NCBI RefSeq assembly: GCF_003790525.1
Contig: NZ_CP033635.1
DNA: 64,000 nucleotides
Reading direction: 5' to 3' (one strand)
DNA from: Escherichia coli
GTDB taxonomy: Bacteria > Pseudomonadota > Gammaproteobacteria > Enterobacterales > Enterobacteriaceae
Shown here piece by piece: positions 25,701 through 31,700 of this stretch. The first letter of the stretch is position 1; the number at the start of each line of letters is the position of its first letter. The position numbers were made by a program.

Positions 25701-28700
25701 GAACTGGTGAAAACCGGTTATGCAGTGAAACCGATCGCCGGTCGCTGTGGTAGCAATATCGACCTGGTCAGCCATCATGAAGAGGTGCTGGACAAAACCA
25801 GCGGTAAATTTGCCGAGCAGAAAAACATCTATCAGCAACTGTGGTGTTTGCCGAAAGTGGACGGTAAATACATTCAGGTATGTACCTTCACCGTTGGCGG
25901 CAACTACGGTGGGACGTGTTTGCGCGGTGATGAATCACTGGTCATCAAAAAAGAGAGTGATATTGAACCGTTAATTGTGGTGAAAAAGTAATACATGTTG
26001 TGGCAACCCCGTACTGATTATGAAGAATAATCAGTACGGGGATTAATCAAAACATTCAATATTTATATATTCCAATATTTATTCATTTTATATGTGAATA
26101 TATTAACCAACAGAATACCTGTGTTTTGATTATTTCTAAAGGTTTTGAATGAATGCTTATTGTCTGATACACAAGAAATAACACGCTTTTTATCGTTAAA
26201 AAATGATATTTCACTTTGCCCATGCCGTTAAAGTCACTGATAATGCGTCCGTTCGTAAATTCAAAATGGCGTAATCTAATATATGCTAAATTTATTTGTT
26301 GGCCTTGATATATACACAGGGCTTTTGTTATTACTTGCTCTGGCATTTGTGTTGTTCTACGAAGCAATCAATGGTTTTCATGACACGGCGAATGCGGTGG
26401 CAACCGTTATTTATACTCGTGCCATGCAACCACAACTTGCTGTGGTGATGGCGGCATTTTTTAATTTTTTTGGCGTGTTATTGGGCGGACTTAGCGTTGC
26501 CTATGCCATTGTCCATATGTTGCCAACCGATTTGTTGCTGAATATGGGGTCAACCCACGGTCTGGCGATGGTCTTTTCCATGCTGCTGGCGGCGATTATC
26601 TGGAACCTGGGAACGTGGTTCTTTGGTTTACCGGCCTCCAGTTCGCACACCTTGATTGGTGCGATTATCGGCATCGGTTTAACCAACGCGCTGTTAACCG
26701 GCTCATCGGTGATGGATGCGTTAAACCTGCGTGAAGTGACCAAAATTTTCTCCTCGCTGATTGTTTCCCCTATCGTCGGCCTGGTCATTGCGGGTGGTCT
26801 GATTTTCCTGCTGCGCCGTTTCTGGAGCGGGACGAAAAAGCGTGACCGTATTCACCGCATTCCGGAAGATCGCAAAAAGAAAAAAGGCAAACGTAAGCCG
26901 CCATTCTGGACGCGTATTGCGCTGATTGTTTCCGCTGCGGGCGTGGCGTTTTCGCACGGCGCGAACGACGGGCAGAAAGGGATCGGCCTGGTGATGCTGG
27001 TACTGGTGGGGATTGCCCCTGCTGGCTTCGTCGTCAATATGAACGCGTCCGGCTATGAAATTACCCGTACCCGCGATGCCGTCACCAACTTCGAACACTA
27101 CCTGCAACAGCATCCTGAACTGCCGCAGAAGTTGATTACGATGGAACCTCCATTGCCTGCGACATCGACTGATGGCACGCAAGTAACAGAGTTTCACTGT
27201 CATCCGGCAAATACCTTTGATGCGATTGCGCGCGTTAAAACGATGCTGCCAGGCAATATGGAAAGTTACGAGCCGTTAAGCGTGAGTCAGCGCAGCCAGC
27301 TGCGCCGCATTATGCTGTGCATCTCTGATACCTCCGCGAAGCTGGCGAAACTGCCAGGCGTCAGTAAAGAAGACCAGAACCTGCTGAAAAAACTGCGCAG
27401 CGATATGTTAAGCACCATTGAGTACGCTCCGGTGTGGATCATCATGGCGGTAGCACTGGCGCTCGGCATTGGCACCATGATTGGCTGGCGTCGTGTAGCG
27501 ATGACCATCGGTGAGAAGATTGGTAAGCGCGGCATGACGTATGCGCAAGGCATGGCGGCACAAATGACGGCGGCAGTGTCTATCGGCCTTGCCAGTTATA
27601 TTGGGATGCCCGTCTCCACAACACACGTACTCTCATCTGCCGTAGCAGGAACGATGGTGGTGGACGGCGGTGGGTTACAGCGTAAAACGGTAACCAGCAT
27701 CCTGATGGCGTGGGTGTTTACTTTACCGGCGGCGATTTTTCTTTCTGGTGGGTTGTACTGGATAGCATTGCAGTTGATTTAACCTTCCTGAAAATGCCCG
27801 GTCCTGGCGATCGGGCATTTCCATTTTTCACTAGTGATAACCACGCGCGGTCATAAAATCCATTATCGCTTTTTCCGCATCAACTAGCACTTGTTCCAGC
27901 GGTTGATTGGCATTGATATCAACCAGTTGCGCGCCTCCAAAGGTTAACTGTGGCGTTATGGCAATCTTCCTCGCCAGCGATTCCCGTTTATGGTCGGGTT
28001 TACGCGCGCAGGCAACTTCAAGGTCAACATTGAGTTTGATGACCAGATCAGGTTTATGGCTCGCCATCCAGTGAAACGCTTTACGCTCCTGGCTTGCCAG
28101 CCATGAGACAAAACGACCACCTTCAACGTTAGGCGGAAACACCGTACCATCGTAAGCGCCAGGAATTTGGTCCTGAGGATAACGGTCGGTTAGAACAATT
28201 AACCCGCGACGACGACAGGCAAGCATATGACGAAAGCGCAGTAAGCGACGGGCGACAAACGCTGTAATTACCAGCGCCGGAACAGGGCCAGGCAATTTTT
28301 TTGCTGTTTTCACCTGATTTCGTTCAATTGTTTTATGTAAGGATTTTCCCATCAACGGTAATTTTGTCACTGCACGACCGACATTTCCGGCCTGTTTTCC
28401 TAAATGAACTCTTTCGGCTGCACCATATTTTTCGACAACGGTAATGAGATGTTCACACACCGTTGACTTGCCTGAACCATCGCTACCAATAACGGCAATT
28501 AATGGAGGTGTTATTGACTGCATGAATATATCCTTTAATTTAAATATCCATTAAAAATATTTATTTGGTTAATATGTTTTTATGAAAGCGTAATTCAGGT
28601 CAATGTCACAATTAACCATTGTCACAATAAGGTTGAACGGATATTCTGAGCACGGACCACGTAATATTCAATACATTATTTGCTGCCGGGTTTTTCGTGA

Positions 28701-31700
28701 ATCAACGTAATATGTCAATAATTAATTCCACGCCAGTGCGTGTTATTGCCATTGTAGGATGTGATGGTTCAGGTAAATCGACCCTCACGGCAAGCCTGGT
28801 AAATGAACTGGCAGCAACAATGCCAACAGAACACATTTATCTCGGGCAATCGTCCGGGCGAATTGGCGAATGGATTTCACAGCTCCCTGTTATTGGCGCA
28901 CCTTTTGGGCGTTATCTGCGAAGTAAAGCGGCACATGTGCACGAAAAGCCCTTAACACCGCCTGGCAATATTACTGCGCTGGTTATCTATCTGCTTTCCT
29001 GCTGGCGGGCGTACAAGTTTCGCAAAATGTTGTGTAAAAGCCAGCAAGGCTATCTGCTCATCACCGACCGCTACCCGCAGGTTGAAGTGCCGGGTTTTCG
29101 CTTTGATGGCCCGCAATTGGCAAAAACCACGGGCGGTAACGGTTGGATAAAAATGTTAAGGCAGCGCGAGCTGAAGCTGTACCAATGGATGGCGTCTTAT
29201 TTGCCCGTATTGTTGATTCGTCTTGGCATTGATGAACAAACCGCGTTTGCGCGTAAACCTGACCACCAACTGGCAGCGTTACAGGAAAAAATCGCCGTTA
29301 CGCCGCAACTGACATTCAATGGCGCAAAGATCCTTGAACTGGATGGTCGGCAACCAGCCGATGAAATTCTGCAAGCGTCACTACGCGCAATTCACGCTGC
29401 GCTTTCCTGATCACCAAAATGGATAGGGGATGATTTAACGAATGGACGCACTACAAACACAAACTGTTAATAGTACAACCGCGCCGCAGCCCAACTACAT
29501 TCCGGGGCTGATTGCGGTGGTCGGGTGTGATGGCACCGGTAAATCCACACTGACCACCGACCTGGTGAAATCGCTGCAACAACACTGGCAAACCGAGCGG
29601 CGCTATCTGGGGCTGCTCTCGGGCGAAGACGGCGACAAAATCAAACGATTGCCGTTGGTTGGCGTCTGGCTCGAAAGGCGACTGGCGGCCAAATCATCGA
29701 AAACCCAAAGCATGAAAACCAAATCTCCAGCGCTATGGGCGGCGGTGATTATGTACTGCTTCTCGCTGCGAAGAATGGCGAATCTACGCAAGGTTCAGCG
29801 ACTGGCGCAAAGTGGCGTTCTGGTGGTCAGCGATCGCTTCCCGCAGGCTGAAATTTCGGGCTTTTATTATGACGGACCGGGGATCGGCGTCGAACGTGCG
29901 ACCGGGAAAATCAGCATGTTTCTGGCGCAGCGCGAACGGCGTTTATACCAACAAATGGCGCAATACCGTCCTGAATTAATCATTCGTTTGGGGATTGATA
30001 TTGATACTGCCATTTCCCGCAAGCCTGACCATGACTATGCCGAATTGCAGGACAAAATCGGCGTCATGTCGACGATTGGCTATAACGGCACAAAAATTCT
30101 TGAGATTGATTCCAGAGCGCCTTACAGCGAAGTGCTGGAACAGGCACAGAAGGCGGTTTCTCTGGTTGCCATCGTTTCTGACCGCCGAAGTTTAACTTAA
30201 GGCTGGCGGGATACTTTTTACTATCAACGATAAGGTCAGGCTGAATTGGCGGGTTTTAACATCAAACATTGGTTTGCAGATGGCGCGTTTCGCACCATTA
30301 TTCGCAATAGCGCCTGGTTAGGCTCCAGTAATGTCGTGAGCGCTTTACTGGGTCTGTTGGCGCTCTCGTGTGCCGGTAAAGGGATGACGCCCGCCATGTT
30401 TGGCGTACTGGTGATTGTGCAATCGTACGCCAAGTCGATCAGCGATTTTATTAAGTTTCAGACATGGCAGTTGGTGGTGCAGTACGGAACGCCAGCCTTG
30501 ACCAACAATAATCCGCAGCAATTTCGCAATGTCGTCTCATTTTCCTTCTCGCTGGATATCGTCAGCGGCGCGGTGGCGATTGTCGGCGGCATTGCCTTAC
30601 TCCCTTTTCTTTCCCATTCATTAGGTCTGGATGACCAAAGCTTTTGGCTGGCAGCGCTGTATTGCACGCTCATTCCTTCAATGGCTTCCTCCACGCCGAC
30701 CGGCATTCTGCGTGCGGTAGATCGCTTCGATCTAATTGCTGTACAGCAAGCGACGAAACCTTTTCTGCGTGCAGCGGGGAGCGTCGTAGCCTGGTATTTT
30801 GACTTTGGTTTTGCGGGTTTTGTTATTGCCTGGTACGTGTCGAATCTGGTTGGCGGCACCATGTACTGGTGGTTTGCCGCGCGCGAATTACGCCGCAGAA
30901 ATATCCATAACGCCTTCAAATTGAATCTGTTTGAGTCTGCCCGACACATTAAAGGCGCGTGGAGTTTTGTCTGGTCAACCAACATTGCCCACTCCATCTG
31001 GTCGGCGCGTAACTCGTGCAGCACAGTGCTGGTGGGGATCGTGTTAGGACCCGCTGCCGCCGGGTTATTTAAAATCGCCATGACATTCTTCGACGCCGCC
31101 GGAACGCCAGCGGGTTTACTGGGCAAAAGTTTTTACCCAGAGGTGATGCGTTTAGATCCGCGCACCACCAGACCGTGGTTGTTAGGCGTGAAGTCAGGTT
31201 TACTGGCGGGCGGAATCGGTATTCTGGTGGCGCTCGCGGTGTTGATTGTCGGCAAGCCGCTCATTTCGCTGGTGTTTGGCGTTAAGTATCTCGAAGCGTA
31301 TGACCTGATTCAGGTGATGCTGGGCGCAATTGTGATCTCGATGCTGGGCTTCCCTCAGGAGTCATTGCTATTGATGGCGGGAAAACAGCGCGCTTTTCTC
31401 GTGGCGCAAACCATCGCCTCAATCGGCTACATCGTATTGCTGTTCATGTTCTGTCATCTGTTTGGCGTGCTGGGAGCAGCGTTTGCTTATTTCGGCGGTC
31501 AATGTCTGGATGTGGTGCTCTCGCTAATTCCAACCTTAAGGGCATTTTTTCAGCGCCATTCCTTGCTTTATAACGCAGCCGGAGAGAAATCCTGATGATG
31601 AGAAAATATTTCCCGCTTGAGGCTAGCGAGCGTCTATTTGTTGCGATTGAAGAAGATGATGTCGTTGATGCACAGGTCAGTTTGCCGCCGACTATCGCAC

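Follow-up and report, generated by a model that had tools for sequence, protein, structure and literature searches.

The genes yghT, yghS and yghR of Escherichia coli, which lie side by side in the stretch of DNA analysed here (64,000 nucleotides, hereafter the 64-kb window), encode proteins that, judged from their sequences, are true, ancient paralogs with a similarity far beyond chance. Their ancient paralogy, their thymidylate-kinase (TMPK) fold and the way in which they travel with sphingolipid genes, a gene for a flippase-like protein and one for a CHAD-like protein make a lipid phosphate head group a likelier product than nucleotides. We propose tentatively, at somewhat less than an even chance, that YghT, YghS and YghR are a hetero-oligomeric phosphotransferase adding a mono- or oligophosphate head group to a sphingolipid. 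The features discussed are listed in Table 1.

Table 1. Features of the kinase genes and of the adjoining sphingolipid locus in the window.
Feature	Position	Strand	Description
Terminator-like hairpin	27792..27820	.	12-bp stem; between convergent pitB and yghT
yghT	27831..28523	-	230 aa, pI 9.9, no transmembrane segment; T-type TMPK-fold P-loop kinase paralog
yghT/yghS divergent control region	28524..28696	.	AT-rich; 173 bp, GC 0.41
yghS	28697..29410	+	237 aa, pI 9.7; S-type kinase paralog
yghR	29442..30200	+	252 aa, pI 9.6; R-type kinase paralog
yghQ	30246..31595	+	449 aa at full length; flippase-like membrane protein of the MOP superfamily (weak MOP flippase match)
274-aa basic protein	31595..32419	+	All-helical, predicted CHAD-like fold; start overlaps yghQ stop
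YtfJ-family protein, second copy	32428..32991	+	TIGR01626, 216 bits; same + strand gene string
lptF2-lptG2	33022..35168	+	LptF/LptG paralogs; TIGR04407 320 bits, TIGR04408 302 bits
aasR-cerR-acpR-spt operon	35203..39290	-	Spt NF047599 600 bits (cut-off 500); RefSeq annotation
yghO	39661..40803	+	Homolog of bacterial ceramide synthase CC_1154/bCerS (PMC9386255)

The three ORFs occupy exactly the interval of the original prediction (27831-30200), with yghT divergent from the yghS-yghR tandem across a 173-bp spacer, and are 33-44% identical. In pairwise BLASTP comparisons, identity is 36% between YghT and YghS (E 2e-53), 33% between YghT and YghR (E 3e-46) and 44% between YghS and YghR (E 3e-62); 54 alignment columns are invariant. 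No further members of the family occur in the 64-kb window. The proteins lack transmembrane segments and are very basic (pI 9.6-9.9). The DNA is 100% identical in E. coli SMS-3-5, in whose record yghT and yghS are named and annotated as 'dTMP kinase', while the yghR ORF carries no name and is listed as 'hypothetical protein'. In K-12, the three genes are annotated as 'putative ATP-binding proteins'; all are intact and under purifying selection, the dN/dS values of the kinase genes ranging from 0.03 to 0.18.

The spacer between yghT and yghS contains a promoter-like site (28619-28647, + strand) and, at 28601-28628, the adjacent near-palindromes CAATGTCACAAT and CATTGTCACAAT; the palindrome is seen in E. 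coli loci only. yghS appears in the H-NS regulon list and is up 3.1-fold upon SlyA overexpression (PMC5797941). At its other end, yghT is convergent with pitB, and the two share the hairpin terminator.

All three kinases feature GxDGxGKST and DR[YF]P motifs. The Walker A motif, one form of which is GCDGTGKST, is found at residues 13, 21 and 28 of YghT, YghS and YghR, and the second motif reads LTDRYP (residue 111), ITDRYP (122) and VSDRFP (129), respectively. An additional common motif, RKPDH, is located in the lid region. As claimed in the original prediction, the LSGGQ-like ABC signature is absent from the three proteins; ABC_tran matches span the P-loop only. The three are not ABC ATPases. 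Residue conservation was counted over 167 family members, and the Walker lysine, the DR motif, helix arginine R93, D125-G126, E146 and the lid residues R174-K175-P-D-H178 are kept in every one (167/167). By this sequence criterion, none of the 167 is a pseudokinase, as every copy carries the catalytic residues.

Fold prediction and a search of kinase families, two of the checks suggested with the original prediction, revealed a thymidylate-kinase fold, on the basis of both fold and profile matches. Like Tmk, the three proteins have a GxxGxGK[ST] P-loop and a DR[YHF] motif, and the regions that align to TMPKs are the P-loop, the helix-plus-DRY segment and the lid. In contrast, their scores are far under the Tmk family cut-offs: 25.5, 25.4 and 30.9 bits against 83.25 for TIGR00041, with no significant match to Pfam PF02223 (Thymidylate_kin; i-Evalues 0.025-0.43). 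Past the DRY motif, where TMPKs read the base, these proteins carry a family-specific PQ...DGP motif, part of a PQ...DGP...E...RKPDH set that appears to stand in for the base-binding segment of Tmk. An insertion of ~30-40 residues relative to Tmk follows the P-loop helix (model residues 40-80). Moreover, Tmk is the product of a single housekeeping gene, whereas lipid or polysaccharide loci carry the genes of this family in sets of two or three paralogs. PADLOC models of anti-phage defence NTPases gave matches of P-loop length only (E at least 2e-4).

The kinase genes do sit at the edge of a lipid locus, which proves to be the sphingolipid (ceramide) locus of E. coli, composed of aasR-cerR-acpR-spt, yghO/bCerS and lptF2G2. 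The four genes of the operon, named in E. coli in PMC9386255, encode an acyl-ACP synthetase, a reductase, a dedicated ACP and serine palmitoyltransferase, and lead to the sphingoid base and ceramide. K-12 lacks the segment from spt to aasR, and its yghQ is truncated by an IS5 deletion. The YtfJ-family gene is present in 16 of 18 Enterobacterales kinase loci. In Caulobacter, LptF2 and LptG2 are sphingolipid-specific permeases that pair with LptB and are required only if phosphorylated sphingolipid is made (preprint 10.64898/2026.04.12.717747). No head-group enzyme was found at the E. coli locus: a CpgB-type ceramide kinase is absent, as are CpgA, CpgC and CpgD. CpgB (CCNA_01218), the ceramide kinase of Caulobacter, is a soluble, cytoplasmic enzyme of the DAG-kinase type with a GGDG motif. 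YghT/S/R would hold the equivalent place in the sphingolipid locus, as the first enzyme making the lipid anionic, but they are P-loop proteins of the TMPK fold without the DAG-kinase GGDG domain, and P-loop kinases are absent from the Caulobacter locus. CpgB and CpgC homologs are present in S. wittichii, which is outside the sampled kinase loci; if other sphingomonads also have them, the kinases would not be a mere replacement of CpgB.

The model of the 274-aa protein comprises two four-helix bundles resembling CHAD, a polyphosphate-binding fold. Within its family, 12 columns consist of at least 90% K, R or H, and the median pI is 9.25. The all-helical fold and conserved basic residues are also those of CHAD proteins (PF05235; 6qv5, 3e0s, PptA 6rn5, the YgiF C-terminus), and the protein is likewise a stand-alone one, in an operon with putative phosphotransferases. 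It differs from CHAD in having no significant sequence match in Pfam or PDB: PF05235 does not match the E. coli protein and matches 1 of 45 family members (i-E 2.8e-3), and a PDB sequence search returned no matches. The protein is best called CHAD-like, an assignment by fold alone, and polyphosphate binding is predicted. Neither this co-conserved protein nor the parallel with PPK3 discussed below featured in the original prediction.

Gene neighbourhoods were compared over 74 kinase loci; the orthologous clades, the fusions and the universality of the catalytic residues are new in this analysis. T, S and R each form an orthologous clade, and the three clades are found across Gamma-, Beta- and Deltaproteobacteria. 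Enterobacterales, Xanthomonadales and Betaproteobacteria keep the layout with T divergent from tandem S-R, while T is accompanied by a single S/R-like gene in Alphaproteobacteria and pseudomonads. T-type genes almost always come with an S/R-type partner, natural fusions join S to R (P0121) or T to S/R (P0122 and P0123), and in other taxa start codons overlap stop codons. Fusions, pairing and overlapping codons indirectly favour the hetero-oligomer or sequential steps envisaged in the original prediction.

The predicted link to a lipid is strongly backed by the conserved neighbourhood. Both yghQ, present in 43 of the 74 loci, and the CHAD-like gene are co-conserved with the kinase genes, and spt-acpR-cerR-aasR map within 10 kb of the kinases in 27/74 loci from four orders. 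The close kinase subfamily is restricted to taxa that include classic sphingolipid producers. Loci without a nearby spt belong mostly to Sphingomonadales and Acetobacteraceae, known sphingolipid producers in which the genes are scattered (PMC9386255). There, unrelated genes surround the four-gene module, an arrangement that speaks against a lipid role. Adjacency to pitB is observed in only 5/74 loci and reflects local synteny in a few Enterobacteriaceae, and LptF2G2 is absent from most taxa carrying the kinase module. Lipid hydroxylase (OlsC/LpxO-like) genes adjoin the kinases in Dyella and other taxa. Pseudomonas marginalis carries an aasR-cerR-acpR-spt-(MsbA-like ABC)-kinase-kinase-(CptA-like phosphoethanolamine transferase, 807 bits) operon, and the CptA-like gene is present in all three pseudomonad loci (3/3). 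Enzymes of the CptA/EptA type decorate phosphate groups of envelope lipids, and WaaP with CptA, or lipid A phosphates with EptA, are the kinase and phosphoethanolamine-transferase pairs of LPS. By analogy, the succession of a kinase pair and a CptA-like gene in the spt operon suggests that phosphate is put on first and decorated later. WaaP (protein-kinase-like) and LpxK (another P-loop group) are unrelated to YghT/S/R beyond the P-loop.

What is established here, namely the paralogy and fold of the proteins, their invariant catalytic residues, the fusions and the gene neighbourhoods, leads us to infer a substrate, a hetero-oligomeric assembly, an order of steps and a type of product. YghT, YghS and YghR would all be catalytically competent, either as subunits or as isoenzymes of one ATP-dependent phosphotransferase that derives from the TMPK fold and is part of the bacterial sphingolipid locus. 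These soluble, very basic kinases may assemble into a T plus S/R hetero-oligomer that works on the cytoplasmic side of the inner membrane; distant relatives have their kinase domain joined to a MOP flippase (one relative) or to a GT4 glycosyltransferase, which places the domain at the membrane face. To ceramide, the product of AasR, AcpR, Spt, YghO and CerR, they would attach a phosphate-based anionic head group, perhaps a single phosphate or a short phosphoanhydride chain that grows by repeated transfer. The CHAD-like protein would hold the phosphate moiety, YghQ would flip the phosphorylated product, and LptF2G2, presumably with LptB, would extract it toward the outer membrane. Our literature search found no paper on the function of the YghT/S/R family and no lipid, ceramide or kinase assay, and we know of no lipid substrate for any thymidylate-kinase-fold enzyme.

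It is conceivable, though somewhat unlikely, that the kinases phosphorylate a small soluble head-group precursor (hydroxy-acid, polyol or sugar), which would next be activated with a nucleotide and passed on to the lipid or a glycan, as happens with pairs of a kinase and a nucleotidyltransferase. In Sphingopyxis, Qipengyuania and Sphingobium, a single S/R-like kinase gene is directly followed by one for an IspD/MobA-like nucleotidyltransferase, and relatives of ~500 aa, found in Wzx/Wzy polysaccharide loci, have an N-terminal domain weakly matching PF14907 (NTP_transf_5); both observations favour such a precursor over a lipid. Two nucleotidyltransferases are likewise used for head-group synthesis in Caulobacter. 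However, a nucleotidyltransferase and an attaching transferase are both missing from the E. coli locus, as they are from the self-contained four-gene modules in Novosphingobium and Gluconobacter, and a single small-molecule step would not call for two or three paralogs that share the same catalytic residues. We regard as quite improbable a role of the module on a different glycolipid or glycan intermediate of the envelope (LPS, ECA or undecaprenyl-linked), with mere co-location of envelope genes behind the sphingolipid link. Tn insertions in yghQ, yghR, yghS and yghT of K-12 were all reported among 50 vancomycin-resistant mutants, alongside mla, waa, opg and wecA (PMC9278758). K-12 lacks spt, so this phenotype, if real, would imply a ceramide-independent activity and hints at such a substrate; the intact kinase genes of K-12 under purifying selection and the distant relatives in polysaccharide loci point the same way. 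The four mutants nonetheless represent one library region, for which a construction artefact is possible, with no complementation (PMC9278758), and the adjacency to spt in four orders and the taxonomic restriction of the subfamily are hard to explain otherwise.

The layout also resembles the archaeal PPK3 operon, in which two TMPK paralogs are accompanied by CHAD. PPK3 of Sulfolobus consists of two exapted dTMPK paralogs, Saci_2019 and Saci_2020, encoded in an operon with CHAD and PPX (PMC12995831). The trio could be a heteromeric polyP:nucleotide phosphotransferase with a polyP-binding CHAD-like partner, which we find unlikely. Adjacent exapted paralogs, a probable hetero-oligomer and basic proteins are common to both systems; the predicted CHAD-like fold of the neighbour and an apparent loss of dTMP-reading residues would fit as well. 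In contrast, the DRX arginine, missing from the PPK3 regulatory subunit, shows 100% conservation throughout the T, S, R and S/R-like clades; PPX, SixA and Pst are not among the neighbours in the E. coli locus; and in the profile comparison the cPPK3 homolog scores 28.5 bits, confined to the P-loop, where ordinary TMPKs reach 47 bits. Sequence affinity is thus no closer to cPPK3 than to ordinary TMPKs. E. coli possesses ppk-ppx, while PPK1 and PPK2 are missing from most PPK3 carriers, and the constant association with a MOP flippase-like protein and sphingolipid genes would be left unexplained. A role as nucleotide (dTMP/NMP) kinases supplying or recycling nucleotides for the locus, rated equally possible in the original prediction, now appears very unlikely. 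The fold, the P-loop Asp, the DR[YF] motif, the TMPK-like helix Arg and the RefSeq name 'dTMP kinase' agree with it; the sub-threshold dTMP-kinase scores (25-31 bits), the apparently replaced base-reading segment and the essential tmk gene located elsewhere in the genome do not, and conservation of several paralogs beside a flippase in lipid loci is not expected of housekeeping nucleotide kinases. Hardly more credible are non-kinase ATPases energising or gating YghQ or LptF2G2, as might be read from the constant pairing with YghQ and the one fusion to a MOP flippase: the ABC signature is missing, no variation is seen in the kinase-type DR motif or lid, MOP transporters are not known to be driven by ATP, and most taxa with the module lack LptF2G2, which in Caulobacter uses LptB (preprint 10.64898/2026.04.12.717747).

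Returning to a lipid-directed phosphotransferase, a more specific version, which we consider improbable, is that the trio is a PPK3-like machine re-targeted to lipid. It would build a phosphoanhydride chain (pyro-, oligo- or polyphosphate) on ceramide, with the CHAD-like protein holding the chain, YghQ flipping it much as Wzx flips undecaprenyl-diphosphate-linked units, and LptF2G2-LptB exporting it. If this is true, E. coli and many sphingolipid-producing Proteobacteria would display lipid-anchored (poly)phosphate on the outer membrane.

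The original prediction of three paralogous kinase-like genes agrees with the reading frames of the window, as the boundaries of yghT, yghS and yghR correspond exactly to ORFs and the encoded proteins are related in BLASTP comparisons (YghT and YghS, 36%, E = 2e-53; YghT and YghR, 33%, E = 3e-46; YghS and YghR, 44%, E = 3e-62). The three sequences share 54 invariant alignment columns, and both the Walker A and the DR[YF]P motifs that had been described are found in each of them. All are basic (pI 9.6–9.9), and none has a hydrophobic segment of membrane-spanning length. The DNA of the region is 100% identical to that of E. 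coli SMS-3-5, and the trio is present in 4604 complete E. coli genomes. dN/dS values of 0.03–0.18, obtained against K-12 and Pseudocitrobacter, are indicative of purifying selection. Literature searches gave incidental mentions only of yghR, yghS and yghT.

The yghT and pitB genes are convergent, and a hairpin terminator lies between them. A functional tie of the kinases to pitB was rejected, as the adjacency is limited to five Enterobacteriaceae loci. On the other side, yghT diverges from yghS-yghR across an AT-rich spacer of 173 bp. Two adjacent near-palindromic 12-mers in this spacer, CAATGTCACAAT and CATTGTCACAAT, 16 nt apart, overlap the -35 element of a promoter-like site and may represent an operator; the exact palindrome is seen in E. 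coli loci only. Where the divergent yghT and yghS encode Walker A, their sequences form an inverted repeat of 38 nt (76% complementary), which is a by-product of paralogy and not a regulatory hairpin. Rfam searches revealed no RNA element within or close to yghT, yghS and yghR, and the two RNAs identified elsewhere in the window are unrelated to the kinases.

Features of the window, with positions numbered over the whole stretch
Feature	Position	Strand	Description
ES173	6354-6417	minus	Rfam sRNA, 99 bits
yghT	27831-28523	minus	230-aa ORF
Inverted repeat	28462-28499 / 28745-28782		within yghT and yghS
Paired 12-mers	28601-28628	plus	yghT-yghS spacer; candidate operator
yghS	28697-29410	plus	237-aa ORF
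yghR	29442-30200	plus	252-aa ORF
274-aa gene	31595-32419	plus	"hypothetical protein" downstream of yghQ; CHAD-like by predicted fold
Second YtfJ-family gene	32428-32991	plus	between CHAD-like gene and lptF2
C0719	48342-48563	minus	Rfam sRNA, 297 bits

Searches of Pfam, NCBIfam and, with single sequences, the PDB returned only P-loop-level or sub-threshold matches to YghT, YghS and YghR; no Pfam match was significant, and no PDB relative was detected. A profile built from 61 family members reaches solved thymidylate kinases (TMPKs) with an E-value of 2e-11, in an alignment covering the P-loop, the helix and DRY strand, and the lid. A TMPK fold is supported by the profile match and by a confident AlphaFold model of YghT (pLDDT 90.8, pTM 0.87), in which confidence is lower for residues 40–80, a segment inserted with respect to TMPKs. 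Residues invariant in the family (YghT numbering) include Walker A, [HY]LG..G, R93, D113-R114-x-P-Q, D125-G126, E146, R174-K175-P-D-H178 and K186. The NCBIfam dTMP kinase model TIGR00041 scores 25–31 bits on the three proteins against a cut-off of 83, yet the family profile reaches TMPKs, and the family has an invariant set of its own; the RefSeq name "dTMP kinase" therefore denotes a superfamily and not a function, and is corrected here. On the same scores, a role as nucleotide kinases, which had been considered equally possible, is unlikely. An anti-phage defence role was rejected, since PADLOC matches involve the P-loop only.

Downstream of the kinases, the plus strand carries yghQ (encoding a 449-residue MOP flippase-like protein), the 274-aa gene, a YtfJ-family gene and the LptF and LptG paralogs (lptF2G2), all separated by short gaps or overlapping at stop and start codons. 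The YtfJ-family gene is kept in 16/18 loci of Enterobacterales and was found in none of the other taxon groups. The convergent operon aasR-cerR-acpR-spt follows, and then yghO; the Spt model scores 600 bits (cut-off 500). Earlier work described the five E. coli ceramide genes and put them to a partial test by expression in a heterologous host (PMC9386255), and the sphingolipid operon of strain UTI89 is drawn in a 2026 preprint (10.64898/2026.04.12.717747). The partner of LptF2G2 in Caulobacter is LptB, and LptF2G2 can be dispensed with only upon deletion of spt or of the ceramide kinase gene cpgB (10.64898/2026.04.12.717747). The complete lipid region is found in 4068 of 5426 complete E. coli genomes; approximately 536 genomes carry the kinases without it (4604 vs 4068). 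Neither a CpgB-type kinase nor any other head-group enzyme was identified in the E. coli locus, of which yghT, yghS and yghR are the sole head-group enzyme candidates. Homology to CpgB was rejected, as CpgB is of the DAG-kinase type and P-loop kinases are absent from the Caulobacter cluster.

No sequence match to the 274-aa protein was obtained in Pfam, NCBIfam or the PDB. The members of its family are of uniform length, with a median pI of 9.25, 12 columns that are at least 90% K/R/H, and invariant residues including R88, K92, H105, H193, R196 and H237-D238. CHAD domains, which bind polyphosphate, consist of two four-helix bundles bearing conserved basic patches, and frequently occur as stand-alone proteins in operons with polyphosphate enzymes (10.1101/567040). 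UniRef gives one homolog the name "CHAD domain-containing protein", and the Pfam CHAD model gives a marginal match in 1/45 members. We therefore refer to the protein, for which the predicted model is very confident (pLDDT 96.2), as CHAD-like by fold and, by sequence, as a candidate member only; its polyphosphate-binding function is putative.

The search of 1.84 billion representatives retrieved 2165 relatives, and the scan of GTDB species genomes yielded 73 loci. In a neighbour-joining tree of 171 kinase domains, T, S and R form three orthologous clades, each holding sequences from Enterobacterales, Xanthomonadales, Betaproteobacteria and deltaproteobacterial/myxococcal taxa. Where all three clades occur, yghT-type genes are usually divergent from the S-R pair; Sphingomonadales, Acetobacteraceae and pseudomonads carry one T-type and one undifferentiated S/R-like gene. 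The Walker lysine and the DR arginine are lost in no family member. Natural fusions join S to R (P0121) or T to S/R (P0122 and P0123), and kinase-module genes overlap at start and stop codons in Novosphingobium and Gluconobacter. Pairing, fusions and overlaps are as would be expected if the proteins act together, perhaps in a complex.

Neighbours were counted in 74 kinase loci by tblastn, with the proteins of the E. coli locus as queries. YghQ and 274-aa homologs are found near the kinases in 43 and 48 loci, respectively, and Spt lies within 10 kb in 27, including 17/18 loci of Enterobacterales, 3/6 of the Xanthomonadales group, 4/7 of Betaproteobacteria and 2/3 of pseudomonads. The remaining loci are mostly from Sphingomonadales and Acetobacteraceae, in which kinase-kinase-YghQ-274aa is a self-contained unit with unrelated flanking genes; both groups are sphingolipid producers with scattered genes (PMC9386255). 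In the Pseudomonas marginalis operon (L070 4035-13893; also L058 and L056), aasR-cerR-acpR-spt are followed by an MsbA-like ABC exporter gene, two kinase genes, a CptA-like phosphoethanolamine transferase gene (807 bits; present in 3/3 pseudomonad loci) and a gene for a 236-aa protein; the ABC flippase stands in YghQ's stead and the CHAD-like gene is absent. An OlsC/LpxO-like acyl hydroxylase gene separates aasR from the kinases in Dyella and other taxa. In Sphingopyxis, Qipengyuania and Sphingobium (L069, L072, L073, L075, L047 and L071), a lone S/R-like kinase gene is directly followed by an IspD/MobA-like nucleotidyltransferase gene, a homolog of which also occurs in the P. marginalis sphingolipid locus (L070 1802-2662). 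Loci of Beta-, Gamma- and Deltaproteobacteria (L003, L022-L037, L066, L069 and L075) also encode, next to the kinases, a conserved protein of ~190 residues without an assigned family; it is absent from the E. coli locus.

Distant relatives of ~500 residues have an N-terminal domain with a weak NTP_transf_5 match and are encoded in Wzx/Wzy polysaccharide loci; some have a MOP flippase or a GT4 glycosyltransferase as a fusion partner. For instance, in L077 (5721-12048) and L080 (198-10419) the kinase domain is fused to a ~250-aa N-terminal domain, without a Pfam match in this member and with a weak NTP_transf_5 match in the relative P0218, or to a GT4 domain. Homology of the 274-aa protein to the N-terminal domain of the ~500-residue relatives was rejected (hhalign probability 1.3%). 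In the same loci the fusion is followed by a second P-loop protein of ~245 residues, in which DQG replaces DRY and the arginine is absent.

Given the conserved neighbourhood, the link of the kinases to a lipid pathway, already part of the original prediction together with their kinase-like nature, is very probable. The best-supported reading, which we hold tentatively, is that YghT, YghS and YghR form a hetero-oligomer, an ATP-dependent phosphotransferase that serves the sphingolipid pathway specifically. The kinases would install an anionic head group based on phosphate; the CHAD-like protein would bind the phosphate, YghQ would flip the product and LptF2G2 would extract it. In the pseudomonad operon, the kinase genes are flanked by those of a lipid flippase and a CptA-like transferase; CptA-type transferases typically decorate lipid phosphates. 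In TMPKs, the equivalent of R93 and the DR arginine position the phosphate acceptor. Since both are retained, transfer of phosphate onto phosphate, leading to pyro- or oligophosphate products, is plausible by analogy. That the kinases act on a small-molecule precursor of the head group is rather unlikely.

A polyphosphate enzyme resembling PPK3 is less probable still. In Sulfolobus, two "thymidylate kinase" genes next to CHAD protein and PPX genes encode the heteromeric polyphosphate kinase PPK3, one subunit of which is catalytic and the other regulatory, without the DRX arginine (PMC12995831). The gene layout, TMPK-fold paralogs with a CHAD-like gene, is strikingly similar. In contrast to PPK3, however, the arginine is present in all YghT/S/R-type subunits (it is the DQG protein of L077 and L080 that resembles the regulatory subunit in lacking it), the E. 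coli locus has no PPX, SixA or Pst context, the pitB adjacency being local synteny, and the family profile scores lower against the cPPK3 homolog than against ordinary TMPKs. PPK3 is the closest working analogy, not the family of these proteins. Slightly less probable again is an envelope substrate other than sphingolipid, and the observations on K-12 bear on it. An IS5-associated deletion in K-12 (L002 6147-8409, i.e., NC_000913.3 3130146-3132408, compared with 30246-40803 of the window) has taken out the 3' end of yghQ, the 5' end of yghO and everything between them; K-12 thereby lacks the ceramide genes, lptF2G2 and the CHAD-like gene, and yghR, yghS and yghT are intact. A set of only 50 vancomycin-resistant K-12 transposon mutants includes yghQ, yghR, yghS and yghT alongside mla, waa, opg and wecA mutants (PMC9278758, Table 1). 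As K-12 lacks spt and ceramide synthesis, this screen is the main observation that the sphingolipid phosphotransferase leaves unexplained; the mutants may reflect an artefact in this region of the library, or else an envelope substrate or role that does not involve ceramide. The chance that the proteins are nucleotide kinases is very slight, and no greater for transport ATPases; the ABC signature is absent from YghT, YghS and YghR, as had been stated.

Previously, yghT, yghS and yghR were known as uncharacterised genes. The three-clade structure, the natural fusions, the conserved kinase/MOP/CHAD-like module, the tie to sphingolipid loci across Proteobacteria and the PPK3 analogy are new. If they phosphorylate a lipid, these kinases would be the first lipid-directed enzymes of the thymidylate-kinase fold and would provide a second, independent route to anionic sphingolipids besides Caulobacter CpgB; lipids of this kind are important for outer-membrane integrity and polymyxin sensitivity. 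Through the CHAD-like pairing, the PPK3 theme of TMPK paralogs and CHAD, recently described in archaeal energy metabolism, reaches into bacterial envelope loci. K-12 is the strain of most work, yet it has lost the sphingolipid core of an otherwise widely conserved locus; yghT, yghS and yghR are concrete targets for deletion and assay toward identifying the sphingolipid of E. coli.
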